In this document: positions 1 through 13,724 of the stretch, in pieces
Layout of the letters: each line of letters begins with the position of its first letter
Position numbering within the stretch: the first letter of the stretch is position 1
NCBI GenBank assembly: GCA_037380845.1
Contig: JARRRI010000022.1
Span: 1-13,724 of the forward strand
Reading direction: 5' to 3'
From: Candidatus Sulfobium sp.
GTDB taxonomy: Bacteria > Nitrospirota > Thermodesulfovibrionia > Thermodesulfovibrionales > UBA6898
Length of the DNA stretch: 13,724 bases
Notes under the pieces: generated by a model
Told to the model about the DNA's origin: nothing
The model's input: the letters and a program-made list of their open reading frames with translations, nothing else
Databases searched by the model: none
Made by a program: the position numbers and the translations under genes

Positions 1-178
1 GCTCAGGTCTCATACATCCGAAAATGAGATGTAGCGCGACCGGGGAAAGGCGGTTGCAGATTCCGCTTCTGGAAAACGGGACGGGATTGTATAAGTTTGA
101 AAAGGCACATCCCTCTTATCCCCCTTTGCCAGGGAGGAATCGAACAAAACATTCGCCGCAGGAAATGCCGGTTGATAA

Positions 179-817
179 ATGAAAGAAAAGAAATTGCAGA
201 AGATTTACGACAGGCTTTTCGCTGCTTTCGGGCCGCAGCACTGGTGGCCGGGGGAAACGGCACTGGAGGTTGCCGTGGGAGCTGTCCTCACGCAGAACAC
301 CAACTGGAGAAATGTCGAAAAGGCGATAGGCAACCTTAAGAAAAAGGGGCTGCTCGATGCGGAACGGCTTCATCTCATGCCGGTCCGGCAGCTGGCCGAA
401 CTGATAAAGCCGGCCGGCTATTTCAATATCAAGGCAGAGAGACTGAAGAACTTTGTCGAATTTCTCACCGTGCAATATGGGGGGAGCATGAGGAAAATGG
501 GAGGCGGGGATGAGGCGACGATCAGGGGAAAGCTGCTTTCCGTCAACGGAATAGGCCCTGAAACGGCCGACTCCATAATCCTTTACGCCCTGGACAGGCC
601 TGTCTTCGTGATAGACGCATATACGAAGCGGGTGCTCTCCAGACACAACATTATGAGGCAAGATTCTTCCTACGACAACTTTCAGCAACTTTTCCATTCA
701 TCGCTTGAAATGGATACTGTTACGTACAACGAATTTCATGCCCTCTTCGTAAGGCTGGCCAAGGAAAATTGCAGGACGAAGCCGCTTTGCGGCGGCTGTC
801 CTCTTGAAAGGATGTGA
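179..817 (+). CDS. HhH-GPD superfamily DNA glycosylase (endonuclease III-related protein)
   Basis: FGPQHWWP, GAVLTQNTNWRNVEKA, IKPAGYFNIKAERLK, HhH motif LLSVNGIGPETADSI, VIDAYTKR, and C-terminal Cys cluster CRTKPLCGGCPL. Confidence 0.92.
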   Translation: MKEKKLQKIYDRLFAAFGPQHWWPGETALEVAVGAVLTQNTNWRNVEKAIGNLKKKGLLDAERLHLMPVRQLAELIKPAGYFNIKAERLKNFVEFLTVQYGGSMRKMGGGDEATIRGKLLSVNGIGPETADSIILYALDRPVFVIDAYTKRVLSRHNIMRQDSSYDNFQQLFHSSLEMDTVTYNEFHALFVRLAKENCRTKPLCGGCPLERM

Positions 818-1029
818 CTGACATGGTAAGAATGGTTACTCAGATAATGGTGGGGCTGATGCTCCTTTTCGGAGTGGCGACTCTCTTCCCGAAGTCGTAT
901 TTCGAGTTCAAGACAGGCAGAAAAAATAAAGGGACCCTTTACCTGGTCCTTGGGAGCCTTGCCCTGATTTTCTCCTTCATGGCGTTTTATTACGCTTACC
1001 TGCTTGTGGACGTACATATAATCCGCTAA
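814..1029 (+). CDS. Small hypothetical membrane protein with two TM helices
   Basis: The GTG start overlaps the upstream TGA (GTGA coupling). Two hydrophobic segments flank a basic loop (FKTGRKNKG). Alternative ATG starts at 823 and 832. Confidence 0.7.
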   Translation: MTDMVRMVTQIMVGLMLLFGVATLFPKSYFEFKTGRKNKGTLYLVLGSLALIFSFMAFYYAYLLVDVHIIR

Positions 1030-1043
1030 CATGCAGACAATGA

Positions 1044-1205
1044 AGCGATCAGCAATCAGCTATAAGCTGTCGGCGGTCAGAAAAAGGCCCAAACAGTCAT
1101 CTGCCCGCCGGGGGCAGGGCTCCGCCCTGAGGACCGCCGTTGCCGGAATCTTTGACGCTGAAAACTGAAAGCTGATGACTGACTGCTGACTGCTGACAGC
1201 CGGAT
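1044..1205. repeat. Inverted arrays of degenerate heptamer repeats between convergent genes
   Basis: Left array 1044-1080: agcgatc/agcaatc/agctata/agctgtc/ggcggtc. Right array 1157-1205: gctgaaa/actgaaa/gctgatg/actgact/gctgact/gctgaca, in reverse-complement orientation. GC hairpins lie between them (1101-1129). Confidence 0.8.
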
Positions 1206-1209
1206 CGGC

Positions 1210-1830
1210 TCAGGGTTTTACGACCACCAGGCGCCGGGTAATGCCGGAGAGAGGGAGCCGAAGGTCGGTCAGGATGATCCTGCCGGGCTCAACCCCCTTC
1301 AGTTCCTCGTCGACTTTCGGTCCCTTGCTAAGCGCCAGGATTCCCCCTTCATTCAGGATACCGGCAGCCTTTTTCAGGAAATCGCCCACGCTGAACAGCG
1401 CCCTGGTCACTGCGGCGTCCACCTTCAGTCCTTCGACCTCCTCCAGCCTTCTGTTGATGACCTCAATACCTTCCAGGCCGAGTCTGGAGCATACATGCCT
1501 GAGAAAAACGGCCTTTTTTTGGGTAGGCTCGACAAGGTAGACTTCAAGCGCCGGATCAGCAATCTTCAGCGGGATTCCGGGAAATCCGGCCCCGCTTCCG
1601 ACGTCGGCCAGTGAGCGCACTTCCGGGGGCAGTACCTTTCTGAAGAGCAGGGAATCGAGGAAGTGTTTGATTACTATGTCACTCGCAGACTTCAAGCCGG
1701 TGAGGCTATAGGTACGGTTCCACTTCCTTAGTTCCGAGAGATAGGTCAAGAAAGAGGCAATCTGAAATTCATTCAGCCCGAGGCCCAGTTCCCGAAGGCC
1801 CTCCCGCAGAAGATCGGCGGCCTCTTTCAT
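1210..1830 (-). CDS. rsmG: 16S rRNA m7G527 methyltransferase RsmG (GidB)
   Basis: WNRTYSLT, KHFLDSL, SAM-binding DVGSGAGFPGIPL, VEPTQKKAVFL, VTRAL, SKG. Confidence 0.95.
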   Translation of the reverse strand: MKEAADLLREGLRELGLGLNEFQIASFLTYLSELRKWNRTYSLTGLKSASDIVIKHFLDSLLFRKVLPPEVRSLADVGSGAGFPGIPLKIADPALEVYLVEPTQKKAVFLRHVCSRLGLEGIEVINRRLEEVEGLKVDAAVTRALFSVGDFLKKAAGILNEGGILALSKGPKVDEELKGVEPGRIILTDLRLPLSGITRRLVVVKP

Positions 1831-1838
1831 GGGCCGGG

Positions 1839-4241
1839 TTAATCCTTCTCAACGACCTTGGCAATGCTTACGATCTTGTCCTCGGTATCCATGAGTTTCA
1901 CCCCCTGGGTATTCCTGCCGTGGACACAGATATTTTCGGCTGTCGTTCGTATCAGCTTGCCGACGCTTGTAATCATGACTACGCCGTCTTCGTCCCTCAC
2001 CTGGAGGAGGCCGGCCACTTTTCCCCCCTTTTCAGTCAGCTTGATGGCGATGACGCCTTTGCCACCCCGGTGGTGAAGGGGATAGTCTTCCGTCCTCGTC
2101 CTCTTGCCATAACCGTTCTCGGCAACGGTAAGGATAGTGGTCTTCTCTTCAACGAAGACTCCGGCCACTACTTCATCTTTCTTTGCCAGCCTTATTCCCC
2201 GCACCCCCCTGGCCGTCCGGCCCATTTCCCTCACGTCCTCTTCGTTGAACTTGATGGCCAGGCCGTTCCGCGTCCCGATGATGAGGTCATTGCTGCCGCT
2301 AGTCCTTCTGACTGCTATCAGCTCGTCCCCCTTGTCCAGACTTATAGCAATTACGCCCTTCCCCCTGGGGTTGCTGTATGCCGTAAGGGCGGTCTTCTTA
2401 ACGGTGCCGTGCTTGGTAAACATTACGAGATAACCTTCCTTGAAGTCCCTTACAGGCAGGGCGGTGGAGACGTACTCTCCCTCTGAAAGCTGAAGGAGGT
2501 TGATGAGCGCTTTTCCCTTTGCCGCCCTCCCGGCCTCGGGGATCTGATAGATCTTCAGCCAGTAGAGCCTGCCCAGGTTTGAGAAAAACAGCATGTAGTC
2601 GTGCGTCGACCCTATGAAGAGCTGTTCGACAAAATCCTCCTCCTTCGTCTCCATGCCGATGAGTCCCTTCCCCCCGCGCCTCTGACTTCTGTATGCGCTG
2701 AGGGGGTTCCTCTTTATGTATCCGGTATGGGAAAGGGTGATCACCATCTCCTCCTCGGAGATAAGGTCCTCTATTGTTATCTCTTTCGTCTCCTCCGTTA
2801 TTTCGGTCCTTCTGTCGTCCGCATATTTTGTCTTTATTTCAAGGAGCTCGTCCTTTATTATCCTGGAAACCAGGGTCTCGCTGCCCAGTATGGCCTTCAG
2901 CCGTTCGATCTCCTTCAGGGTCTCCTTATATTCGCTTATTATCTTTTCGCGCTCCAGGCCGGTCAGACGCTGCAGCCTCATGTCGAGAATAGCCTGTGCC
3001 TGTCTTTCGGACAGCGGATATCCGCTCATCAGTCCCGCCTTGGCCTCTGCGGGACCTGCCGATGCCCTGATCAGGGCGATTATCTCATCCAGGTGATCGA
3101 GGGCTATCTTCAGTCCTTCGAGTATGTGGGCCTTCTCTTCGGCCTTTCTTAGTTCAAAACGCGTCCGCCTGATGATGACGTCCCGCCTGTGGCGGAGGAA
3201 GTAATCGAGTATCCGCTTCAGGCTGAGCACATGGGGCTGGCCGCCCACCAGGGCGAGCATTATGATGCCGAAGGTGGTCTCCATCTGCGTATGTTTGTAA
3301 AGATTGTTAAGAACGACCTCGGCAACCTCACCCCGCTTTAGTTCGATCACCACCCTGATGCCGTCCCTGTCAGACTCGTCCCTCAGATCCGAGATACCCT
3401 CTATCTTCTTTTCCCTCACCAGTTCGGCTATATTTTTGATCAGCCTGGCCTTGTTGACCTGATAGGGAAGTTCGGATATGATTATGTTCTCGCCACCCCT
3501 GTGCTCCCGTTCGATCCTTGCCTTGGCCCTTATCTTTATCAGTCCCTTGCCGCGCGCATAGGCGTCCCTGATACCTGCTGTGCCATGGATGATCCCGCCG
3601 GTGGGGAAGTCAGGTCCTTTTATCGCCGTCATGAGCTCCTCCGCCGCGGCGGCCGGGTTCTCCAGAAGCATGACGAGGCCGTCAATAACCTCCCCGAGGT
3701 TGTGGGGGGGTATGTTCGTCGCCATCCCCACAGCTATGCCGGCGGCGCCGTTGATAATGAGGTTGGGTATCCTGGATGGCAGAACTATCGGCTCTTCCGT
3801 AGTCTCATCGAAATTGGCTGTAAAATCAACCGTTTCCTTGTCAATGTCGGCCAGCAGTTCCTCCGCTATCCTGGCCAGCCTTGCCTCTGTATATCTGTAG
3901 GCCGCGGCCGGATCACCGTCCACCGAGCCGAAGTTGCCCTGGCCGTCCACCAGCGTATATCTCATGTTAAAATCCTGTGCGAGTCGCACCAGGGCATCAT
4001 AGACAGCGGAATCGCCGTGGGGATGGTATTTTTTCAGGACCTCGCCGACCACACCGGCGCTCTTCGAATACTTTCTGCCCGGCAGCAGTCCCTCCCTGAA
4101 CATGGCGTAAAGGATGCGCCTCTGCACGGGCTTGAGACCGTCTCTCACCTCCGGGAGCGCCCTGCCTATGATTACGCTCATGGCGTAATCAAGGTAGCTC
4201 ACCTTCATCTCTTCTTCTATGTTTATGGGTAGTTTAGACAT
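1839..4241 (-). CDS. gyrA: DNA gyrase subunit A
   Basis: [40 protein letters not shown], catalytic AAYRYTEAR, GyrA-box QRRGGKG (2664-2684) and a beta-pinwheel CTD. SD-like AGGAAGG upstream. Confidence 0.98.
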
Positions 4242-4268
4242 CGTATACCTTCCTCTCTGAGATCAGAT

Positions 4269-4277
4269 ATTTTACCA
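4269..4277 (-). promoter_or_regulatory. Putative extended -10 promoter for gyrA-rsmG
   Basis: Minus strand reads TGGTAAAAT (TGn + TAAAAT), about 28 nt upstream of the gyrA ATG. Confidence 0.55.
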
Positions 4278-4359
4278 TATCGCTGCCACTTGCAGCCTTT
4301 GTTTTCAACAGCCTTCGGCTGCCCGGACCACAGCATCATCCGTCACGCGGGGGAGCACG

Positions 4360-4387
4360 ATGCAAATTATTTTAATTTCGCTATAAT
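4360..4387 (+). promoter_or_regulatory. Putative sigma70 promoter for the HAMP-GGDEF gene
   Basis: Perfect TATAAT at 4382-4387, weak -35 ATGCAA at 4360-4365, AT-rich 16-nt spacer. Confidence 0.5.
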
Positions 4388-4425
4388 AAAGTACCCCGGC
4401 GGGTCCGCGGGTTCCGAAAAAGAGA

Positions 4426-5751
4426 ATGAATCTGATACTGCGGCAGAAGATATTCCTTGGATATATGGCCATGGTGTTCTTTACCCTGATAGTCGGGGGG
4501 TATGCTATCTGGAGCCTCGTAGAGCTGAACGAGATTTCTACAGGTATTATCCTCAACGACGCGTCTACGCAGGAAAAGATAACCAAACTGAACGACCTCC
4601 TCCTGGCGCAGAACCTGTATGAGAAACGTGCGCTCACATTCAAGGAACCCGATGCGGAGGAGGCCTTCTGGGGCAGGAGCAGGGAGTTCAGGTCCCTGGT
4701 CTCCGAAATGGCCGGCAACCAGCCGTCTCTGAAGGAAGCCCTTCAGGATATCGGAGCTTTCCACAGCGAATATACGAACCTTTTCGTAAAGGAGCTCTCC
4801 CTTGTCCGGAAAGGCCGTACGGAAGACGCCGACCTCCTTTCATCGATCCAGCTGAAAAACGTCTTCACCAAGATGCTCTTTTCGGTCAAAGACCTTTCGC
4901 AGAAAATCAAGGACCGGCAGAACCGGAATATAAACCGTTCATATTCCTTCGGAGAGAAGGCCCTCATGGTAACTATCATGCTCAGCACAGGGTCCCTTCT
5001 GTTCGGCATCTTCTTCGCGTCCTTCATAACCAGGTACGTCACGACAGCCATCGACAGGTTAAAGGCAGCAACCGTCTCTATCCAGAGCGGTGATTTCGAT
5101 AATCTCCCCGAGATTGCCGGCGCCGACGAACTTGCCGACCTGGCCATCTCCTTCAAGGAGATGTCCGCCAGGCTGAAGGAACTTGAGGAGATGAACCTGG
5201 ACGCCAACCCGCTGACCAAGCTTCCGGGCAACCTCGCCATAGAGAAGGAGCTGCTCACGAGGCTGAATGAGACACTCAGCTTTTCTTTCTGTCTGGCCGA
5301 CCTGGATAACTTCAAGGCCTTTAACGACAGGTACGGCTACGCCCGCGGGAGCGACGTGATCAAGTGGATGGGTGAACTTTTGTCAACCGTCATCAAGGAG
5401 ACGGGCAACCCCGGCGATTTCCTGGGGCATATCGGGGGAGACGATTTCGTCATTATCTGTTCTCCTGAAGAGGTACGGTCTATCTGCAGCAGGATCATTG
5501 AAGAGTTCGACAGAGGTATCGCACAGCATTACGATCCGGAAGATCTCAAGAAGGGCTATATTGTCTCCGTCGACAGAAATGACAGGCCGGTGATAGTGGG
5601 AATAATGACACTCTCCATAGCGGTGGTCAATACCGACCGCACGGTGATAAGGGAGCCGAAAGAGGTCGCCATGAAGGTGGCGGAGATCAAGCAGTACGCC
5701 AAGACCTTCGCCAAAAGCATCTACATAATGGACAGGAGAAGGGCCAGGTAG
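4426..5751 (+). CDS. Membrane sensor HAMP-GGDEF dinucleotide cyclase (GGDDF motif; candidate Hypr-type cGAMP synthase)
   Basis: TM1, helical periplasmic domain, TM2, HAMP (IDRLKAAT...DELADLAISFKEM), then DANPLTKLPGN, DLDNFKAFNDRYGYARGS, HIGGDDF (GGDDF at 5434-5448) and TLSIAVV. Confidence 0.92.
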   Translation: MNLILRQKIFLGYMAMVFFTLIVGGYAIWSLVELNEISTGIILNDASTQEKITKLNDLLLAQNLYEKRALTFKEPDAEEAFWGRSREFRSLVSEMAGNQPSLKEALQDIGAFHSEYTNLFVKELSLVRKGRTEDADLLSSIQLKNVFTKMLFSVKDLSQKIKDRQNRNINRSYSFGEKALMVTIMLSTGSLLFGIFFASFITRYVTTAIDRLKAATVSIQSGDFDNLPEIAGADELADLAISFKEMSARLKELEEMNLDANPLTKLPGNLAIEKELLTRLNETLSFSFCLADLDNFKAFNDRYGYARGSDVIKWMGELLSTVIKETGNPGDFLGHIGGDDFVIICSPEEVRSICSRIIEEFDRGIAQHYDPEDLKKGYIVSVDRNDRPVIVGIMTLSIAVVNTDRTVIREPKEVAMKVAEIKQYAKTFAKSIYIMDRRRAR

Positions 5752-5756
5752 AAAGG

Positions 5757-7115
5757 TTAGTAACGGAGTAAAGCCTTCTTCATGTCACCCACTACTACGA
5801 GTACGCAGTCCCCGGGATGCAGATATCGCCTCGCCACTTTCAGGACATCTTCTCTGGTGACGGAGTTTATGAAGCCGCTGTACCTGTCGGCATAGTCGAG
5901 ACCGAGGCCGTAAAATTCCACGGCGACCAGGAAACCGGCCATCTTGCTGATCGAGTCGATACGCAGGGGAAAGCTGCCTGTCAGATATGCCTTCGCGTCG
6001 CTCAGCTCCCGGTCGGTGACCGGTTTCGACCTTATCCTCTTCAGTTCCCTGAATACCTCGTCGATGGCGGTATTGGCCGAGGAGTTTTTCGTCTGGAGTT
6101 GAACCTGAAAGCCTCCGGCGTACCTGTCGGCGGAGAAATGGCTGCGTACGTCATAGGCGAGCCCCCTGTTGTCACGAATGTTGTCCATCAGCCTCGACGC
6201 GAACCCGCCACCGCCCAGGATATAATTCATGACCGACACGGCATAGTAGTCGGGGTTGTCCCTTTTTATGCCGAGGTGACCCAGGATGATGTTGGCCTGG
6301 GTGATGTTCCTGTCGATCCTGATGACCTTCCGGCCTTTTGCCGGCCGAGGTGCTTCCGGCACACCGCCTGATATATCTTTCCTCCGCCAGTCCCTGAAGT
6401 GTCTGTTGATCAGAGATACCGTCTCCTTCCTGTCCAGATCGCCCACAACGGCCATTATGGCATTATTGGGAGCATAGTAGCGGTCGTGGAAGTCTACTAT
6501 GTCCCTGCGCGAAATCGAGTCCAGGCTCTCCTCCGTGCCCTCCACCGGCCGGCCGTAAGGGTGCTTCCCGTAAACGGTCTTAAGAAAGGCCTTTGATGCT
6601 ATTGTTCCCGGGTCTTCTTTCTGCCGGAGGATAGAACTTTTTATGATCGCCTTCCGCCTCCCGATCTCGTCCCGGCTGAATGAGGGGTGTATGATTATAT
6701 CGGATAGGAGGTCGAACCCCAGTTCCACGTCTTTCTTCAAAACGGTAAGCGACACGGTGACATAATCGCGGCCGCCCGAGATACTCAACTGCCCTCCGAC
6801 AAATTCGATTTCATCGCTGATTTGCCTTGATGTCCGTTTCGCGGTCCCTTCGTTCAGGAGGTCGGCGGTGAGGTTCGAAAGCCCGGGTTCGGAGGGCGGC
6901 TCGACAACACTTCCCGCCTTTACCGCCACCACCACCTTCACTATCGGCAGTTCCGTCTTTTCAGAATGAAGGAGTACCAGACCGTTTGAGAGCACCTCCC
7001 TGTCCGCTGTCCTGCCGGCCGTTGCAGGAATGGCAGTGAGATGCAGGGCAAGAAGACAAAGGAGGAAGTAAAAAGGGACAGGGAGTCTCCTCAGGCCGCC
7101 AGTCTTTCCGGTCAT
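5757..7115 (-). CDS. M16 family peptidase, non-catalytic subunit, exported
   Basis: Likely start is the ATG at 7115, overlapping the upstream TGA (ATGA), followed by a signal peptide. The HXXEH position is degenerate (GLSNLTADLL). Retains YYAPNNAIMAVVGD and ILGGGGFASRL..IRDNRGLAY. Confidence 0.9.
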   Translation of the reverse strand: MTGKTGGLRRLPVPFYFLLCLLALHLTAIPATAGRTADREVLSNGLVLLHSEKTELPIVKVVVAVKAGSVVEPPSEPGLSNLTADLLNEGTAKRTSRQISDEIEFVGGQLSISGGRDYVTVSLTVLKKDVELGFDLLSDIIIHPSFSRDEIGRRKAIIKSSILRQKEDPGTIASKAFLKTVYGKHPYGRPVEGTEESLDSISRRDIVDFHDRYYAPNNAIMAVVGDLDRKETVSLINRHFRDWRRKDISGGVPEAPRPAKGRKVIRIDRNITQANIILGHLGIKRDNPDYYAVSVMNYILGGGGFASRLMDNIRDNRGLAYDVRSHFSADRYAGGFQVQLQTKNSSANTAIDEVFRELKRIRSKPVTDRELSDAKAYLTGSFPLRIDSISKMAGFLVAVEFYGLGLDYADRYSGFINSVTREDVLKVARRYLHPGDCVLVVVGDMKKALLRY

Positions 7116-8431
7116 AGTCCCGCCCCTTTTTTCAGGGGTATGAGGATGCCCGTCGTTTTGCGTTCCGGGACGAGGTATTTCCGGGCGACCCGGCTCACTT
7201 CCTCCGGGGAAACCTTCCTTATCCCTTCCAGATAGGTATCCAGAAGCCGCCACCCTCCGATCATCTCGAAGGCGCCGATCATCCTGGCCTGCATGTAGAT
7301 AGAGTCCTGCCCCATAACGAAGGACGCCTCTATCTGATTTTTCGCCTTCTGCACCTCACGTCCGGAAGGCGGCTCCTTCTTTATCCTTTCGATTTCGTCC
7401 AGTATCGCCTTTTCGACATCTTCTATATTCTTCCCTCCGGCGGCGGTCCCCCCGGTCATAAAGAGGAAGGGATCGCGGTACATGCCTTCGTAACTTGCCC
7501 ATGCCGACAGGGCCAGCTGCTTGTCATAGACAATGGAACGGTAGATCCTCGAACTCTTGCCTTCCGAAAGAACGGTCGCCAGCACGTCGAGCGCATAAGC
7601 ATCCTCATCCCTGATGCCGGGGACCTTGTAGACCGAAAGAACAGCGGGCAGTTCCGCCTCTTTTCTTATGTATATCCTCTTTTCCCCGTATTGTTCATCC
7701 TCCCCGGCAGCGCTTTCAGCTATTGCAGGCCCCCGGGGGATTTCGCCGAAGGATTTCCTGACCGCAGAAAGCACTTCTTCCGGCTTCACATCCCCCACCA
7801 CTATAATTACCGCATTATTAGGGGCGTAGTAGGTTCTGTAATAGGAGGCCAGTTCCGCCGGCTTCAGGGTCTTCAGGTCGGACTTCCAGCCGATCACCGG
7901 CCAGCGGTAAGGATGACTATTGAAGGCCGCCGCCAGGACCTCCATAAAAAGGAGGTTCTGGGGGTCGTCTTCATAACGAAGCCTCCTCTCTTCCATCACG
8001 ACATCCCGCTCGGAAAGGACCGCAGCAGGTGTCAGTACGAGGTTCCGCATCCGGTCGGCCTCGAGGCTAATCGGCAGCCCTATGCGGTCGGAGGAAATCA
8101 TTTCGAAATATGCGGTATATTCCCGCGTGGTAAAGGCATTGTCCCATCCGCCCGCCCTCTGGATGGCCTGGGAAAAAGTCTTTGGGCCGCGGGTCGAGGT
8201 GCCCTTGAACATCATGTGCTCCAGGAGATGGCTCAGGCCGGTCTCGCCGATATTCTCGTCCCGGGACCCCACGCGATACCACACCTGGAAAGTAGCCGTC
8301 GGGGCTTTGTGGTCTTCCACGATCAGCAACTTCAGACCGTTGTCGAGCCGGTACTCTCTGGCATTGACCGCATGTGCGCAAACAGGGGCCATGATGAGAA
8401 GGACAGCCAGCAGGTTCCGGAAAACTTTCAT
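7112..8431 (-). CDS. M16 family zinc peptidase, catalytic subunit, exported
   Basis: Signal peptide (...AHA), LDNGLK, GLSHLLEHMMFKGT (HXXEH), NAFTT, ERDVVMEERR, HPYRWPVIG. Confidence 0.95.
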   Translation of the reverse strand: MKVFRNLLAVLLIMAPVCAHAVNAREYRLDNGLKLLIVEDHKAPTATFQVWYRVGSRDENIGETGLSHLLEHMMFKGTSTRGPKTFSQAIQRAGGWDNAFTTREYTAYFEMISSDRIGLPISLEADRMRNLVLTPAAVLSERDVVMEERRLRYEDDPQNLLFMEVLAAAFNSHPYRWPVIGWKSDLKTLKPAELASYYRTYYAPNNAVIIVVGDVKPEEVLSAVRKSFGEIPRGPAIAESAAGEDEQYGEKRIYIRKEAELPAVLSVYKVPGIRDEDAYALDVLATVLSEGKSSRIYRSIVYDKQLALSAWASYEGMYRDPFLFMTGGTAAGGKNIEDVEKAILDEIERIKKEPPSGREVQKAKNQIEASFVMGQDSIYMQARMIGAFEMIGGWRLLDTYLEGIRKVSPEEVSRVARKYLVPERKTTGILIPLKKGAGL

Positions 8432-8434
8432 TGC

Positions 8435-8502
8435 CTATTTTACATGTATCGGTTGTACGTTTCCAACTCCCGGTTGCCCGGCGGACGCTCTTAACGTACA
8501 AT
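8435..8502. promoter_or_regulatory. Divergent promoter region (M16 operon / IMPase operon)
   Basis: Minus-strand TAAAAT (8437-8442) lies 5 nt before the M16 ATG. Plus-strand TACAAT (8497-8502) lies 9 nt before the ATG at 8512. No clear SD for either gene. Confidence 0.5.
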
Positions 8503-8511
8503 AGCCTTAAC

Positions 8512-9315
8512 ATGGAAATCCGCGACTTCAGGGAGATAGGCAAAAGGTTGATGGAACAGATCCCGGCGATGAGGAATTCCGGCGACTTGAAGACGTCTCT
8601 GGGCAGAGGGGCCGGAGGGGACAGGACCTTTCGAATAGACAGGGAGGCCGAGGACATCATTATCACCGGGTTCCGCGAGCTTGGGGAGCCCCTCACCTTC
8701 ATATCGGAAGAGGCCGGAATCGTGGAGATGGGGGGCGGGGAAACGGTAGTGATCGTAGACCCCGTAGACGGGAGCAAGAACGCCGTTTCCGGGATACCTT
8801 TCTATTGCACATCAATTGCTGCGGCCGGGGGAAAGACGCTCGGCGATATAAGATATGCTTACGTTCTCAATCTGATAAGCGGTGATGAATTCTGGGCCCA
8901 AAAGGGTGAGGGCTCATTCCTTAACGGACGGCGGCTCCTTGCCCAGAAGGACGAAGAACTGTATCTGACCGCTTACGAGGCGCAGTCCCCCCCGCGGGAC
9001 ATCCCGCTGATCCTGCCCCTTCTTGTCCGCTCCGGAAAGACCAGATGTCTGGGCGCCACCGCACTGGATCTATGCCATCTCGCCTCCGGGGCGGTGAGCG
9101 CCTTCGTTTCGCCCTCGCCTTCAAGGAGTTTCGATTTTGCCGCGGCATATCTCATAGTGAGGGAGGCGGGCGGGGTTTTCACCGATATGGACGGGAAGGA
9201 CATAGAGGACGTCCGGCTCGGACTCGGCCGGAGTTCAGCGCTGCTCGTCTCCGGGAACGGACGGCTCCACCGGAAGGTCCTGGCAGTCCTGCGAAAGAAG
9301 GACGAAGTTGTATAG
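8512..9315 (+). CDS. Inositol monophosphatase / FBPase class IV family (FIG superfamily) phosphatase
   Basis: GAGGDRTFRIDREAE, SEEAG, VDPVDGSKN, RCLGATALDL, RSFDFAAAYLIVREAGG. Start reassigned from the TTG at 8431 to the ATG at 8512. Confidence 0.9.
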   Translation: MEIRDFREIGKRLMEQIPAMRNSGDLKTSLGRGAGGDRTFRIDREAEDIIITGFRELGEPLTFISEEAGIVEMGGGETVVIVDPVDGSKNAVSGIPFYCTSIAAAGGKTLGDIRYAYVLNLISGDEFWAQKGEGSFLNGRRLLAQKDEELYLTAYEAQSPPRDIPLILPLLVRSGKTRCLGATALDLCHLASGAVSAFVSPSPSRSFDFAAAYLIVREAGGVFTDMDGKDIEDVRLGLGRSSALLVSGNGRLHRKVLAVLRKKDEVV

Positions 9316-9634
9316 GATTCTGCTGCTGAGGGTGTTTGCCGCGCTCATCGGCGGCTATGTCGCGCACAGAAAAGGCAGGAGCGTGGTCCTCTGGGGTCTG
9401 GCCTGCGGGGTGATACCGCTGGCGGTCCTAGTGGTGCTCCTGCTCCCGCCCGTCCTCGCGAAAGGACGCACAAAGAGATGCCCCCACTGCTCCCGGATAG
9501 TCCCGGCGGGAGACACTGTCTGCCGTTACTGCAAGAGGGAACTCCCGATAGAGCTTGTACATTGCAGGGAGTGCGGCAGCTTCGTCCCCGAGCGCGAATA
9601 CTGCTCGAACTGTCACAGAAAGCTCAAGGTGTGA
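9308..9634 (+). CDS. Small membrane protein with double zinc ribbon
   Basis: Two TM helices with the AHRKGRS...W motif, then four CxxC motifs (CPHC, CRYC, CREC, CSNC). The TTG start overlaps the upstream gene end. Confidence 0.8.
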   Translation: MYRILLLRVFAALIGGYVAHRKGRSVVLWGLACGVIPLAVLVVLLLPPVLAKGRTKRCPHCSRIVPAGDTVCRYCKRELPIELVHCRECGSFVPEREYCSNCHRKLKV

Positions 9635-9723
9635 CCTTCCTGCGCTGTCCGGGAACAGTTCCCTGGGCCTTCGCGTACACCGAAGTTCAAGTGGACCATC
9701 CCTCCCGGTCAAAGCGGAAATGC

Positions 9724-10524
9724 TTACTCCTTTAACAGACAGGTGCGGCCGGCCCGGTCTGCCGGGTCCTGGCGATAGTAGGTACTGAGGACACGGTAGA
9801 GATCGGGGGCGTGCTTCCGCAGGTCAAGGGGCCGGTCAAAGAACTCCTCGGTCGCCACGGCGAAGAACTCCGCTTCATTCGTTGCTCCGTATGCGTCAAG
9901 GAAGGTCTTGTGGCCCTTTCCGGCGAGCCGCCGCAACCGCAGAAATTCGTGAGAACATACGGCCACCCATTCGTCGAACTGGGCGTGGTCGGAAAGGGGC
10001 GGGGTGCCGTCGGCACCTCCGTCGAGCATGTCGAGCTTGTGGGCGAACTCGTGGTAAACAACGTTATGCCCCTGCTCGGGATGGCGAGCACCGTGGAGGA
10101 CGGCGTCCCACACAAGTATCACCGGCCCCTGGGCCAATGCCTGACCAAGAATGGGAACGGGAGCCGCTACGGGCGCGTCTACGCGCTCAAATACACCGTG
10201 GTGGCGTTCGGGAGGCACCACGGTGGAGGGATAGACAAGGATCGACTGCACGTTGCGATAGTAGTCGTGAGGAAGCCCCAGTTGCAGCAGGCACGCCTGG
10301 GCCGCGATAGTAACGCGGATCTCGTCGGTGAGCTCCAGCCCGCCACATCCCTCCCACTGCTTTTCCTCCAGGAGGACCTGTATCATCGCACGCAGTTCGG
10401 CACGTTCAGCGGCGTCAAGCATGCGGTAGTGAACCAGGTTCTCACGCAAGAAGTCCTCCCACTCGGGAGGGAACGGCCGCTTTACAGCCTCGGCCCGGCG
10501 GTGGTCGCGGAGCCAGTGGAACAT
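9724..10524 (-). CDS. MtfA-like zinc metallopeptidase (M90 family)
   Basis: EGCGGLELTDEIRVTIAAQACL, ILVYPS, GHNVVYHEFAHKLDM (HEXXH), DAYGATNEAEFFAVATEEFF, YYRQDP. Strong SD AAGGAGG. Confidence 0.93.
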   Translation of the reverse strand: MFHWLRDHRRAEAVKRPFPPEWEDFLRENLVHYRMLDAAERAELRAMIQVLLEEKQWEGCGGLELTDEIRVTIAAQACLLQLGLPHDYYRNVQSILVYPSTVVPPERHHGVFERVDAPVAAPVPILGQALAQGPVILVWDAVLHGARHPEQGHNVVYHEFAHKLDMLDGGADGTPPLSDHAQFDEWVAVCSHEFLRLRRLAGKGHKTFLDAYGATNEAEFFAVATEEFFDRPLDLRKHAPDLYRVLSTYYRQDPADRAGRTCLLKE

Positions 10525-10542
10525 GATACCTCCTTTACTATT

Positions 10543-10551
10543 AGTTTAACA
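10543..10551 (-). promoter_or_regulatory. Putative extended -10 promoter for the mtfA-like gene
   Basis: Minus strand reads TGTTAAACT just upstream of the SD. Confidence 0.45.
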
Positions 10552-10646
10552 CACCGAAAAAGGGGCCTCACCGCTCGAATCTTTAGCCTGAAGACATGTA
10601 AAGGGTCGCACGTTACATCATTCTCTTCCGCAATCTTCAGGTCAAG

Positions 10647-11201
10647 TCAGTCAACACCGTCCCTCGGCCGCCTGCCTCGATTGGCGTCATTGTCATCCGG
10701 CCTGCCCGCAACATCTGCCGGCAGTTCAAATATTAGCTGGTCTCCGATATTCAACTGCCATTTTTTCGACATGCCGGAGACCGATTCCAGGACATAAGCC
10801 GCCCTTTCTTCGGAAGTATAAGTCCTGCACGGCCCCCTCGCGCACGGTCTTGCGCCGTCGACAATGTGGACAACACGTCTGGCTTGATCAAGCCATATTA
10901 TGTCGAGGGGCATCTTTGTGTTCTTCATCCAGAAATCCCAATAGTCACTCTGCGGACAAACGAACAACATGCCGCGGCCTTCGGGCAGGTTTTCGCGGAA
11001 CATCAGGCCCCGCAACCGGGCTTCCGGGGTGGCGGCAATTTCGGCGGCGATACAATGACTTCTGTCCTTGCACACCTGAACGACGGGCAGGCCGGGCAGC
11101 GATGCAGATTCCGCTGACGAATGAAACATCGCCACCAGTGCAGCTGCCATCAGCAGATTAAAACACTTCCGTCGACCCCGGTCAAACGCCGTCTCAACCA
11201 T
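10647..11201 (-). CDS. DUF192 domain exported protein
   Basis: AEIAATPEARLRGLMFRENL...GMLF, FWMKNTKMPLDIIWLD, YVLE. The likely ATG at 11201 (GGGGG upstream) gives a basic RGRRK N-region plus a hydrophobic signal. A longer start at 11264 is possible. Confidence 0.88.
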   Translation of the reverse strand: MVETAFDRGRRKCFNLLMAAALVAMFHSSAESASLPGLPVVQVCKDRSHCIAAEIAATPEARLRGLMFRENLPEGRGMLFVCPQSDYWDFWMKNTKMPLDIIWLDQARRVVHIVDGARPCARGPCRTYTSEERAAYVLESVSGMSKKWQLNIGDQLIFELPADVAGRPDDNDANRGRRPRDGVD

Positions 11202-11310
11202 ATTGCCCCCGGGGCGGTGGTGAATGAACCGGTTTGTCCGGGCGCTCCGCCTTTTTTTATCCATCAGCCGGTGACGCTATCAGATGTTCCAAAGGTCCGC
11301 CAGAGCGTTC

Positions 11311-11928
11311 TTACGAGGGTGTACCCTGGCCCGGCGTGGTAAGGGATTTCCTGAGTCCGCCGATCAAATCCCTGGTCCAGCGCTCTTCCCGGGGCACAAG
11401 CCGCTGATATTTGACAAAGGCTTCGAGTGCGGCTTCTTTTTCGTCAAGGAGGGCCAGGACGAGGCCCAGATTATAAACCAGGTTCGGGAATCCGGGCTCG
11501 ATTTCTGAGGCCAGCTCATAATGCATCCTCGCCAGACGCAGGTTATCTCCATCGAAATAAAGGTTACCAAGGTTGTAATGCGATTCGAAATGTCTTGGAT
11601 CATGCCTGAGTGATCTTGTGAAACAGTCAAACGCCTTCGTCATCCTGCCCGCCCTGGATTCGAGAATGCCCAGATTGCAATATGCATCGGCTATCTGATC
11701 GCCCTCCGCGATCGCTCTCAGGTATAACTTCTCAGCCCGGCTGTCATCGCGTTCTTCCAGCAGCAGGGCTTCCTCGAAAGGGCTGATGTTTGTCGGAAGC
11801 CGCCTGACCCCGGCCGGCTTTGGAGAGAACAAATTCAACTGGTCCGGGTTTTCCCTGCTCCGTTTTCTTGCCCGCTCGAAACCGAACTTCGACGACTGTC
11901 TCAAAGGAAAAGGAACAATTTTACCCAT
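11311..11928 (-). CDS. Tetratricopeptide repeat protein with an N-terminal disordered arm containing QLNLF
   Basis: TPR repeats AYCNLGIL..., SHYNLGNLY..., LVYNLGLVL.... About 45 aa basic N-terminal arm. Confidence 0.88.
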   Translation of the reverse strand: MGKIVPFPLRQSSKFGFERARKRSRENPDQLNLFSPKPAGVRRLPTNISPFEEALLLEERDDSRAEKLYLRAIAEGDQIADAYCNLGILESRAGRMTKAFDCFTRSLRHDPRHFESHYNLGNLYFDGDNLRLARMHYELASEIEPGFPNLVYNLGLVLALLDEKEAALEAFVKYQRLVPREERWTRDLIGGLRKSLTTPGQGTPS

Positions 11929-11965
11929 GCTCTATTTTACACCATCCCGGCGGAGCAGAAACCAA

Positions 11966-12027
11966 AATATTATCACCCGGAGATTCATCCGCCTCTATAC
12001 CCTTTGCGTCTCTGTGGTGAACTATTA
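11966..12027. repeat. Degenerate inverted repeat with nonamer-like units between ku and the TPR gene
   Basis: aatattatcacccggaga ... tctctgtggtgaactatt, with internal units ctctatacc / ctttgcgtc / tctgtggtg. Confidence 0.45.
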
Positions 12028-12069
12028 TTTTATTTTTTCAGGCATCTTGCGCGGTTTCATTTTCCGGGG

Positions 12070-12924
12070 CTAACCCGCCGCCCTGGATTTCCCCTTTTCC
12101 TCTTTGGATACAGCAGCTTTCTTCTTCCCCGTAGCCTTTTTCATGGGCTTTTTCTGCGACCTGGCCTGTTCGATGCTCTGCTTCAGGGCCGTCATGATGT
12201 CCACAGGCGACTTCTCCTCTTCTTCCACTGTGACGATCTCCTTCCCCTCGATCTTGGCCTCGATCATCGCCCTGAGGGCGTCCTGGTACCTGTCGGTCAG
12301 ATCAATCTTGTCCATCGTAGTACTCATGGAAGAAACGAGACTGCGTGCCAGTTTGAGCTCCTCCTTGTCTATATTCTTTCCGTCAAGCTGGGGGACCTCG
12401 TTTATGTCCCGTATCTCTGCGGGCAGCCGAAGCTTGTAAAGCGCCACGGCGTTCTCGTAGGGCGCGATCATCACCACATCTTCCCGGTCATGCAACACGA
12501 CCTTCCCCATCCCCACCTTCCCGGTTTCCCTCAGCGCGGCAGCCAAAAGGGAATAGGCCTGGACCGCTACTGCACCGTCGGGTCCCGCGTAGTAGGGGCT
12601 TTCATACAGCGTGGGATGGACATCCCCGGCGTCTATAAAGCCCTCTATTTCGATTATCCTTGTACTCTTGAGGTTTATCTTTTCCAGATCTTCCTTTTCG
12701 ACGATCACATACTGCTCGGGCTCATACTTGTATCCCTTGACAATCTCGCCGGACGGCAGGACCTTATCGCATTTTTTGCACCGTTTGTCATAACCTATGC
12801 GGCCGTGGTCCTCCCTGTGAAGAAGATGAAAGCTTATTGTCTCTGAAGTATCCACGGCGTTATATATGAGGACAGGTATCGTTACCAGCGAAAAGCGGAT
12901 ATGACCCTTCCAGATTGCTCTCAT
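12070..12924 (-). CDS. ku: Prokaryotic Ku protein (NHEJ)
   Basis: MRAIWKGHIRFSLVTIPV, RIGY..C, IVKGYKYE..QYV, IEIEGFI, YYAGPD, DRYQDALRAMIEAKIEG, VDIMTALKQS and a Lys-rich tail. SD GGAGGTG. Confidence 0.97.
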   Translation of the reverse strand: MRAIWKGHIRFSLVTIPVLIYNAVDTSETISFHLLHREDHGRIGYDKRCKKCDKVLPSGEIVKGYKYEPEQYVIVEKEDLEKINLKSTRIIEIEGFIDAGDVHPTLYESPYYAGPDGAVAVQAYSLLAAALRETGKVGMGKVVLHDREDVVMIAPYENAVALYKLRLPAEIRDINEVPQLDGKNIDKEELKLARSLVSSMSTTMDKIDLTDRYQDALRAMIEAKIEGKEIVTVEEEEKSPVDIMTALKQSIEQARSQKKPMKKATGKKKAAVSKEEKGKSRAAG

Positions 12925-12979
12925 GTTTCACCTCCCGGGACAGATCTACTAAAAAAACCGGGTTGAGAAAGCCTCGGGA

Positions 12980-13157
12980 TGTCATTCCCGCAAGTGAAGC
13001 GCGCCTGCCGGCAGGCAGGGAATCCTTCCGGAAAACGGAAAGATTCCCGATCCGACTCCCGATGCGGATCTCCGCAGAAGGTGCTACGACTTCGCCGAGA
13101 GTCGCTCCGACCGGACAAGTTTACCCGCCTCCGGCGGTGTCCGGGACCGGAATGACA
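12980..13157. repeat. Composite REP/MITE-like palindromic element
   Basis: 9-bp terminal inverted repeats TGTCATTCC/GGAATGACA enclose several independent palindromes. Confidence 0.8.
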
Positions 13158-13203
13158 AATAGCACCCATACCCGGCTTTCCTTCTGATCTCTTATTCATT
13201 CAC

Positions 13204-13231
13204 ATTATAACCCCATTCAGTCACTTTTTAA
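13204..13231 (-). promoter_or_regulatory. Putative internal promoter upstream of ku
   Basis: Minus-strand TATAAT at 13204-13209 with TTAAAA 16 nt upstream. Confidence 0.5.
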
Positions 13232-13247
13232 CCACGCTCCGGATCGA

Positions 13248-13724
13248 TCACAGGTCCAGATCGGGTCGCAGTCTGAGAAACACGGGCTCCCGAAGCTTCC
13301 CGTCCCTGGTCAGCGAAGAGTACTGCACTTCGCATATCACCCTGGGCTCGATCCAGACGGTCTGTGCATCATCAACCGGTTTTTCGCTGACCGGCCTTTT
13401 TACCCGCCTGATTTTCTTTATGCAGGCCGACGTCTCTTTCATCGACTTTTCGTCGAACCCCGTTCCCACCTTGCCTGCATAGCGGAGGGTGCCGCCTTGC
13501 TGCACAGCCAGATGCAGGGCGCCAAAAAGGGGCCGGCGGCCGCCTTTTCCCTTTGTATACCCCACGATCACACACTCCATCGTCCGCCGCTTCTTGATCT
13601 TCAGCCACTGGGCGCTCCGTGTGCCCGGCCTGTAGGCGCTGTTTCTTTCCTTCGCCATGATCCCTTCGAGTCCCATCTTCACAGCGGCTTCGAACAGGTC
13701 GGCACCCTCGGAGATCGCTTCACT
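13248..13724 (-). CDS. ligD: ATP-dependent DNA ligase, LigD-type (3' part; 5' end outside the window)
   Basis: The frame is open to the window edge. Motifs EGIMAK and WLKIK, then OB-fold VGYTKG..FGALHL..YAGKVGTGF..WIEP..EVQY..T..GKLREPVFLRLRPD. Adjacent to ku. Confidence 0.9.
   Translation of the reverse strand, partial: SEAISEGADLFEAAVKMGLEGIMAKERNSAYRPGTRSAQWLKIKKRRTMECVIVGYTKGKGGRRPLFGALHLAVQQGGTLRYAGKVGTGFDEKSMKETSACIKKIRRVKRPVSEKPVDDAQTVWIEPRVICEVQYSSLTRDGKLREPVFLRLRPDLDL

Follow-up and report, generated by a model that had tools for sequence, protein, structure and literature searches.

In bacteria, does non-homologous end joining (NHEJ) always make do with Ku and LigD, or have some lineages added a partner? 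The question is raised by a stretch of 13,724 nucleotides (nt) from Candidatus Sulfobium sp., a member of Nitrospirota (assembly GCA_037380845.1, contig JARRRI010000022.1, positions 1 to 13,724; hereafter the window), in which ligD and ku are directly followed by a gene encoding a tetratricopeptide repeat (TPR) protein of 205 amino acids (aa). A preliminary description, made from the sequence alone, had pointed to this protein as a candidate accessory component of NHEJ, because its N-terminal arm carries a peptide resembling those by which proteins bind DnaN, the β sliding clamp. With slightly better than even confidence, we see in the 205-aa protein a lineage-specific accessory subunit of a mobile ligD-ku-TPR cassette, able to bind Ku, DNA and, probably, the β clamp; the end-joining system of this lineage probably has a third partner. 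The argument starts from what can be seen directly in the data, namely the gene order, the separate clade of Ku, the conservation of the motif, the modelled disorder of the arm, and the substitution of a helix-turn-helix (HTH) domain for a basic patch in relatives.

Linkage of the TPR gene to ku and ligD

The contig measures 137 kb, in a genome of 3.18 Mb, and the window takes up its first 13,724 bases. Four consecutive genes reside on the minus strand, in the order ligD (3' part), ku, the TPR gene and a DUF192 gene. The co-orientation of the TPR gene with ligD and ku, and its position downstream of both, had been reported in the preliminary description and are confirmed. The members of the cassette are:

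13248 to 13724, minus strand: 3' part of ligD, encoding the end of the ligase adenylation domain and the OB domain (PF04679, 1.4e-26; TIGR02779, 8.7e-47)
12070 to 12924, minus strand: ku, 284 aa (TIGR02772, 5.1e-81), member of the TPR-linked Ku clade
11311 to 11928, minus strand: gene of the 205-aa TPR protein (P0001), matching TPR_1; 81 orthologs aligned

A genome scan at one genome per species retrieved 377 relatives of the TPR protein. The best 80 loci and the window make up a set of 81 loci, in which open reading frames (ORFs) were called and clustered. A Ku cluster lies directly upstream of the TPR gene, and co-oriented with it, in 77 of the 81. Among the four exceptions, L073 and L086 have the TPR gene 135 and 221 nt from a contig edge, too near for upstream genes to be visible. 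Between the ku stop and the TPR start the median distance is 46 nt, being at most 20 nt in 18 of 75 loci, at most 150 nt in 62 and larger than 300 nt in 5. Among the 58 loci with at least 3 kb upstream of ku, ligD is present in 44, and in the other 14 the ku-TPR pair stands without a nearby ligD. The expected enrichment of homologs beside ku and ligD is thus borne out. No recurring gene was found downstream among the 81 loci, and no fourth recurring member inside the block, the occasional insertions (type I phosphodiesterase, permease, pirin, Ada and others) being mutually unrelated.

The adjacency could stem from one ancestral cassette, and the TPR gene might be a passenger with an unrelated job, carried along with a transferred ku-ligD block; the generic nature of the TPR fold, and the failure of any NCBIfam family to reach its cut-off, are compatible with such a view. 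We deem it very improbable. Gene order persists down to ~50% identity while the other flanking genes all differ, the ku-TPR pair outlasts the absence of a nearby ligD, and conservation of the protein is high over its full length.

Some loci deserve a separate mention. A type I phosphodiesterase/nucleotide pyrophosphatase gene (PF01663, ~3e-99) is located between ku and the TPR gene in two Ignavibacteriales loci (L032:5201-6430 and L033:8773-9996). At L087 (L087:9107-9963), which bears the label Gemmatimonadetes, only overlapping Ku-like (69 bits) and LigD PrimPol-like fragments precede the TPR gene, as if the cassette had decayed and left the TPR gene intact. A DUF72 gene (PF01904) is found upstream of ligD in 25 of the 81 loci, co-oriented in ~60% of them (as an example, L015:5950-6675), and is perhaps loosely associated with the cassette as well; in the contig to which the window belongs, a cupin gene separates the DUF72 gene (L090:3518-4222; PF01904, 9.4e-57) from ligD.

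A separate clade of Ku

The distribution of the pair was monitored in 301 genomes evenly drawn from the phylum of the window. Ku occurs in 76 of them, and the TPR ortholog in two, the genome of the window and one other (G190), where it again follows ku. A hidden Markov model (HMM) built from TPR-linked Ku scored 510 bits on the Ku of G190, and at most 244 bits on 23 further Ku ORFs, encoded in 19 genomes of the sample. A FastTree phylogeny was built from every third of the 71 TPR-linked Ku, 24 in number, and all 24 Ku ORFs of the phylum sample (G190 Ku and the 23 others); in it, linked Ku form one clade, with a split support of 1.0 and a branch length of 0.68. The genome hosting the nearest Ku outside the clade has no TPR ortholog. 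The TPR protein goes with one clade of Ku, and not with bacterial NHEJ in general. Within the clade, Ku proteins are 56-87% identical across phyla; such values, and the rarity of the family within each phylum, fit a cassette moved by horizontal transfer.

The Ku encoded in the window, which scores 271.9 bits against the TIGR02772 equivalog (cut-off 150; PF02735, 6.2e-42), is the sole Ku of the genome, and the Ku core is the only domain that Pfam recognizes in its 284 residues. A short sequence distinguishes its C-terminal tail:

12127 to 12153, minus strand: KKPMKKATG, Ku tail motif (family consensus KKPMEKA.G), following the common VDIM.ALK.SI segment

Residues K259, P260, M261, A264 and G266 are invariant in the alignment of linked Ku, and KKPMEKA.G is missing from the consensus, drawn at a 60% threshold, of the 23 other Ku of the same phylum. 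The motif is a candidate docking peptide for the TPR protein.

Two ku genes stand side by side, in tandem, in many genomes of this phylum (for instance G169:C19:69764-71093, G238:C2:5904-7239 and G209:C13:6034-7436). The two copies fall on separate branches of the Ku tree, as for a heterodimer, and there is no TPR gene in these genomes.

Architecture and conservation of the TPR protein

In a word-indexed search of 5.8 billion proteins, the best 120 matches are 63-79% identical to the TPR protein over 89-100% of the query. A profile search of 1.84 billion representatives yielded 4218 hits at E <=1e-30, dominated by giant multi-repeat TPR proteins; among the best 150 of these hits, ~32 are single-stretch proteins of 174-280 aa. 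The record titles of the 80 loci carry more than ten phylum labels, among which Nitrospirota, Thermodesulfovibrionales, delta-proteobacterial groups, Chloroflexota, Bacteroidota, Ignavibacteriota, Verrucomicrobiota, KSB1, Latescibacterota, Krumholzibacteriia, Calditrichaceae and Gemmatimonadetes. In viral contigs, 26 pattern matches were found, none of which is a relative of the TPR protein. The 81 proteins align from residue 1 with a mean column identity of ~57%, a high value for a TPR protein found in so many groups. The protein can be divided as follows:

11782 to 11928, minus strand: N-terminal arm (residues 1-49), modelled as disordered, carrying conserved short motifs
11854 to 11889, minus strand: KFGFER (residues 14-19) and basic patch RARKRSR (residues 19-25; the patch alone, 11854-11874)
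11827 to 11841, minus strand: QLNLF (residues 30-34), pentapeptide of the β-clamp-binding type, flanked by ENPD and SPKP
11338 to 11781, minus strand: TPR domain (residues 50-197), nine helices making up about four repeats and a capping helix

Three Pfam families match the protein above cut-off (TPR_1, 59.4 bits against 27.8; TPR_2, 47.6 against 27; TPR_17, 49.8 against 24.4). No HTH family was matched in the Pfam search, which leaves the protein outside the MerR family, and the 14 TPR families matched in NCBIfam all score far under their cut-offs (MamA, 38.7 bits against 200). The AlphaFold2 monomer model, obtained from the 81-row alignment, has a mean predicted local distance difference test (pLDDT) value of 83 and a predicted template modelling (pTM) score of 0.77. 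The TPR domain, mostly above 90, is folded into antiparallel helix pairs with a capping helix, and the best PDB matches retrieved by Foldseek are generic TPR structures only, the consensus TPR 9gzg_A (E 2.8e-07, TM by query 0.61) and the TPR of O-GlcNAc transferase, 1w3b_A. Residues C84, C102, H113, H117 and H136 are invariant, or nearly so, in the alignment, and might conceivably make up a metal site. The invariant Asn residues of the repeats had been considered as a special ladder, and the idea was dropped, such residues being part of the general TPR repeat consensus.

No secondary structure is predicted before residue 50. The pLDDT is below 50 at residues 1-6, 8-13 and 24-43, and reaches ~66 at residues 14-23; QLNLF falls in one of the lowest stretches, ahead of the confidently modelled TPR domain, in the disordered setting usual for such motifs. 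The motifs of the arm are, in order, an N-terminal hydrophobic-x-F-P, KFGFER, the basic patch, QLNLF, and RLP directly ahead of the repeats. KIVPFP (residues 3-8), RARKRSR and QLNLF, with its Pro and polar flanks, all lie where the preliminary description had placed them. Among the 81 orthologs, K14 and G16 are conserved at 90% or more, F7 and RLP are conserved as well, and residues 14-29 have a median net charge of +5. When residues 1-50 were used to look for the arm in longer proteins, seven candidates emerged, and none of them scored; this argues weakly against fusions of the arm to other proteins elsewhere.

The QLxLF motif

QLxLF is exact in 62 of the 81 orthologs, and a looser pattern is found in 68. 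The five columns read QLNLF in 45 proteins, QMNLF in 6, QLDLF in 5, QLPLF in 5, QLSLF in 4, QLHLF in 3 and other sequences in 11, and are deleted in 2. Conservation reaches 94% at Q30, and 90% at both L33 and F34, and the flanks vary both in sequence and length. The 81 loci were split into clades by the taxon names in the record titles, independently of the motif, and the group of the window was set at 24 loci (Nitrospirota, delta-proteobacterial groups, and the Chloroflexota-labelled L020). Outside this group the loose motif is found in 56 of 57 loci, and the remaining one reads QLQFLF. The copy in the window is intact. QLxLF is, as far as the alignment tells, under selection in most of the family.

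A single QLxLF is not above chance, since the 2984 crude ORFs of the genome contain 6 such sequences, and ~10 are expected from composition. The above-chance signal is the conservation among orthologs, inside a linker variable and rich in indels, and the conserved gene order. Four of the six sequences lie in hydrophobic stretches. The two in a polar context are DQLNLFS, in the TPR protein, and EQLDLFS, in the 859-aa MutS (L192 = G000:C21:16907-19486, minus strand), where it lies in the C-terminal tail, at residue 818; a clamp motif in the C-terminal tail is the pattern seen for MutS in other bacteria. With respect to its sequence and its disordered setting, QLNLF resembles known clamp-binding motifs. 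According to PMC3716654, QL[S/D]LF is the clamp-binding consensus, and the clamp-binding motif of E. coli UmuC, 357-QLNLF-361, has been crystallised with the β clamp; its letters are identical to those of the TPR protein.

MerR-type relatives

The arm varies among more distant members of the family. In two relatives (P0229 and P0269) an acidic or Gly/Pro-rich insertion follows the N-terminal x-F-P, and KFGF, the basic patch and QLDLF are retained. In two others, ~270 aa long (P0230 and P0244), a MerR_1 HTH (44.9 and 35.5 bits; cut-off 21.6) takes the place of the basic patch, and is immediately followed by QLNLF or QRNLF, and then by the TPR domain. The TPR domain of P0230 is 44-51% identical to those of the other six aligned rows (44% to P0001), and the N-terminal x-F-P is shared. 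The replacement of the basic patch by a true HTH, QLNLF being kept, supports a contact of the arm with DNA, and KFGFER and RARKRSR are a probable DNA-binding segment.

The 80 metagenome loci closest to P0230 (L112-L191) were analysed for comparison; the match starts within the first 15 residues in 74 of them, spanning the MerR region. Where at least 900 nt are available upstream, ku is present in 18 of 43 loci and absent in 25; where 200-899 nt are available, a partial ku is seen in 10 of 20. The genes adjoining MerR-type genes devoid of ku are unrelated housekeeping genes, encoding, among others, a secretin, a CoA ligase, a radical SAM protein, a methyltransferase or a dehydrogenase. The motif (position 2 being L, M, I, V or R) is found in 75 of the 80 proteins, and in 23 of the 25 encoded by loci with room, but no adjacent ku. 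Retention of the motif away from ku would be anticipated for a partner that occurs in all cells.

These relatives bring up the hypothesis that the protein has a regulatory role instead of one in repair, as a switch that binds DNA and acts on the expression or the activity of the cassette, and in which the TPR domain senses or binds a partner. The short form would then derive from the MerR-type form, itself the ancestral transcription factor. The HTH itself, the frequent occurrence of MerR-type genes as stand-alone units among unrelated genes (25 of the 43 loci with room), and the basic arm that the short form has retained, with its median charge of +5, fit this hypothesis. We consider it decidedly unlikely for the protein of the window, which has no HTH; a basic disordered arm gives no sequence-specific binding. 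The tight coupling to ku, with gaps of at most 20 nt in 18 of 75 loci, and the ~57% column identity resemble those of a stoichiometric partner, and a conserved motif of the clamp type has no obvious role in a transcription factor.

Predicted complex of Ku and the TPR protein

A complex of three chains, the Ku dimer and the TPR protein, was predicted by supplying an own alignment for each. The score was 0.56 (runs at 0.64, 0.56 and 0.56), and the best of three controls reached 0.01, the resulting verdict being "weak support". At least 49% of contacts are shared between runs, and the pLDDT of the partner is at least 70. The mark is passed by 116 of 157 solved complexes and by 2 of 215 mismatched pairs, and scores not exceeding 0.60 include only 18 of the 157 solved complexes, and both mismatches; the counts are only a rough guide here, because of the own alignments and the three-chain job. 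We know of no solved Ku-TPR complex. Binding of Ku by the TPR protein is weakly supported by the prediction.

The same data bear on the possibility that the protein is a true partner of Ku and LigD, and that QLxLF is an internal docking peptide, fitting into a hydrophobic pocket on Ku, on LigD, or in the TPR groove of the protein itself, the clamp playing no part. Linkage to ku would be equally accounted for, and so would the further conserved motifs of the arm (F7, K14, G16 and RLP), the intermediate pLDDT of residues 14-23, as though packed on something, and the Ku-TPR model. Eukaryotic accessory factors do bind Ku via short motifs, which dock, however, on the von Willebrand factor A (vWA) domain, as stated in PMC8073936, whereas Pfam reveals only the Ku core here. 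We find this possibility unlikely, since the motif is kept in MerR-type relatives having no adjacent ku, which suggests a partner present in every cell, and its letters are canonical for the clamp, the sole comparable motif of the genome being that in the MutS tail.

A model for the ligD-ku-TPR cassette

In the model that we favour, the scaffold of four TPRs would hold Ku, possibly via the clade-specific KKPMEKA tail motif. The basic segment of the disordered arm would bind DNA, and QLxLF would dock in the hydrophobic cleft of the β sliding clamp. The TPR protein could in this way tether Ku, and via Ku also LigD, to clamps loaded on DNA. Alternatively, clamps might signal the replication status to the end-joining machine, and the effect may be one of recruitment or of restraint. 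That the TPR groove is the surface binding Ku or LigD, as the preliminary description proposed, is something that we purely infer. The full picture of a three-part machine, in which a TPR adaptor seated on Ku plugs into the sliding clamp, joining is either recruited to or restrained at clamp-bearing DNA, and the cassette has spread between phyla, is a possible one, to be held tentatively.

Several observations weigh against the model. As many as 74 of the 76 Ku-positive genomes of the phylum sample do without the TPR protein. At L078 and L081, both of the standard type and with enough upstream sequence, no ku is recognisable, and linkage to ku is not obligatory in the wider family, as the 18 of 43 MerR-type loci indicate. 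Gene order inherited with a transferred cassette does not amount to many independent observations. In the group of the window the motif is kept in 12 of 24 loci, and lost or degraded in the other 12, in two by deletion; it must therefore be dispensable in part of one clade. Finally, most complex predictions passing at this level are wrong, except where the interaction was already likely on other grounds; gene order did make it likely here, and the prediction has been counted as a small increment only.

The accessory role put forward in the preliminary description is therefore upheld in its genomic predictions, linkage and motif, receives weak support from the modelled complex, and does not extend to NHEJ at large, as only 2 of 76 Ku-positive genomes have the protein. 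QLxLF is conserved in most of the orthologs and of the MerR-type relatives, and yet the motif has decayed in half of the clade to which the window belongs.

Neighbouring genes and intergenic regions

The remaining features of the minus-strand row are:

12925 to 13247, no strand assigned: ligD-ku spacer, unusually long, containing a dispersed intergenic repeat
11929 to 12069, no strand assigned: ku-TPR spacer, 141 nt, with no terminator-like site on the minus strand
10647 to 11264, minus strand: DUF192 gene, fourth gene of the row

The ligD-ku spacer owes its unusual length to the repeat that sits inside it, the median ligD-ku gap among relatives being 107.5 nt. Twenty-two other partial copies of the repeat, ~27-113 nt long and 70-96% identical, are dispersed on 20 contigs of the genome. 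No Rfam family was matched in a search of the window, spacer repeat included. Promoters and terminators scanned in the region 10500-13400 are no more numerous than in shuffled sequences.

The ligD gene runs on past the window. Its upstream part corresponds to a translation of 656 aa, and a short run of N, outside the window, breaks the gene so that no single continuous frame is readable. A full-length LigD from a relative (L013:6531-8879) matches PF21686, PF13298, PF01068 and PF04679; LigD proteins of relatives measure ~776-780 aa, and have the domain order PrimPol-phosphoesterase-ligase (Pol-PE-Lig).

The region 179-10524 of the window hosts genes for an HhH-GPD glycosylase, rsmG (GidB), gyrA, a HAMP-GGDEF protein, two M16 peptidases, an inositol monophosphatase, a double zinc ribbon protein and an M90 peptidase. 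The cognate DnaN is a protein of 366 aa (L089:766-1866), and dnaA and dnaN lie in the same contig, ~120 kb from the genes of the window.

Comparison with known systems

The literature searches returned no description of this TPR protein, and no link between a bacterial Ku and the β clamp. The term TPR did not occur in the bacterial Ku literature found, the abstracts of which still describe a two-component system, nor did term look-ups retrieve it in two papers on the comparative genomics of Ku and LigD (PMC7719229 and PMC9226535), main texts and not supplements being concerned in either case. Bacterial NHEJ serves as the minimal model of end joining, and a conserved third subunit, if real, would mean that at least one lineage needs more. 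The link would be the first between a bacterial Ku and the β clamp in the literature searched. It would also provide a simple system to study the coupling of end joining to replication, made of three small, soluble-looking proteins with a known cognate DnaN, and a bacterial counterpart of the motif-bearing accessory factors and cell-cycle regulators of eukaryotic NHEJ. The cassette could possibly be useful in genome engineering with Ku/LigD pairs.

Generic TPR scaffolds, such as consensus designs, the TPR of O-GlcNAc transferase and MamA, share the fold with the protein described here, but none of them has this arm or this gene context. The MerR-HTH-TPR sister form shares the TPR domain, the x-F-P start and QLNLF, and differs in the HTH replacing the basic patch, and in the presence of ku in 18 of 43 loci only.

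Clamp-binding proteins offer a term of comparison for the arm. The motif has the letters of UmuC, is internal, lies in a stretch modelled as disordered and is conserved in most orthologs, and QLDLF is found in the MutS tail of the same genome; further clamp motifs are QLGLF in Pol II, and those in MutS tails. In contrast to such proteins, the one described here consists of a TPR scaffold only, to which no polymerase or repair enzyme domain is attached, its motif has decayed in part of one clade, and its contact with the clamp is putative.

The nearest analogy is offered by the eukaryotic factors XLF, PAXX, APLF and MRI/CYREN, which attach to Ku by short motifs docking on the vWA domain of Ku70/80, as described in PMC8073936. 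The likeness is in concept only: they too are small, non-catalytic proteins that combine disordered arms with basic patches and short hydrophobic motifs, and that join the Ku-ligase machine or regulate it. At the level of sequence no relationship was found, and their folded parts are not TPRs. Since their motifs dock on the vWA domain, and Pfam recognizes only the core in the Ku of the window, what is shared is logic, not family.

Among the known systems close to the cassette is also the two-component NHEJ described for Mycobacterium, Bacillus subtilis and Pseudomonas, in which a Ku homodimer works with LigD. The two core genes are the same, and are organized in one co-oriented block. Unlike in those systems, a third conserved gene follows ku here, and Ku itself belongs to a separate clade, marked by a tail motif of its own.

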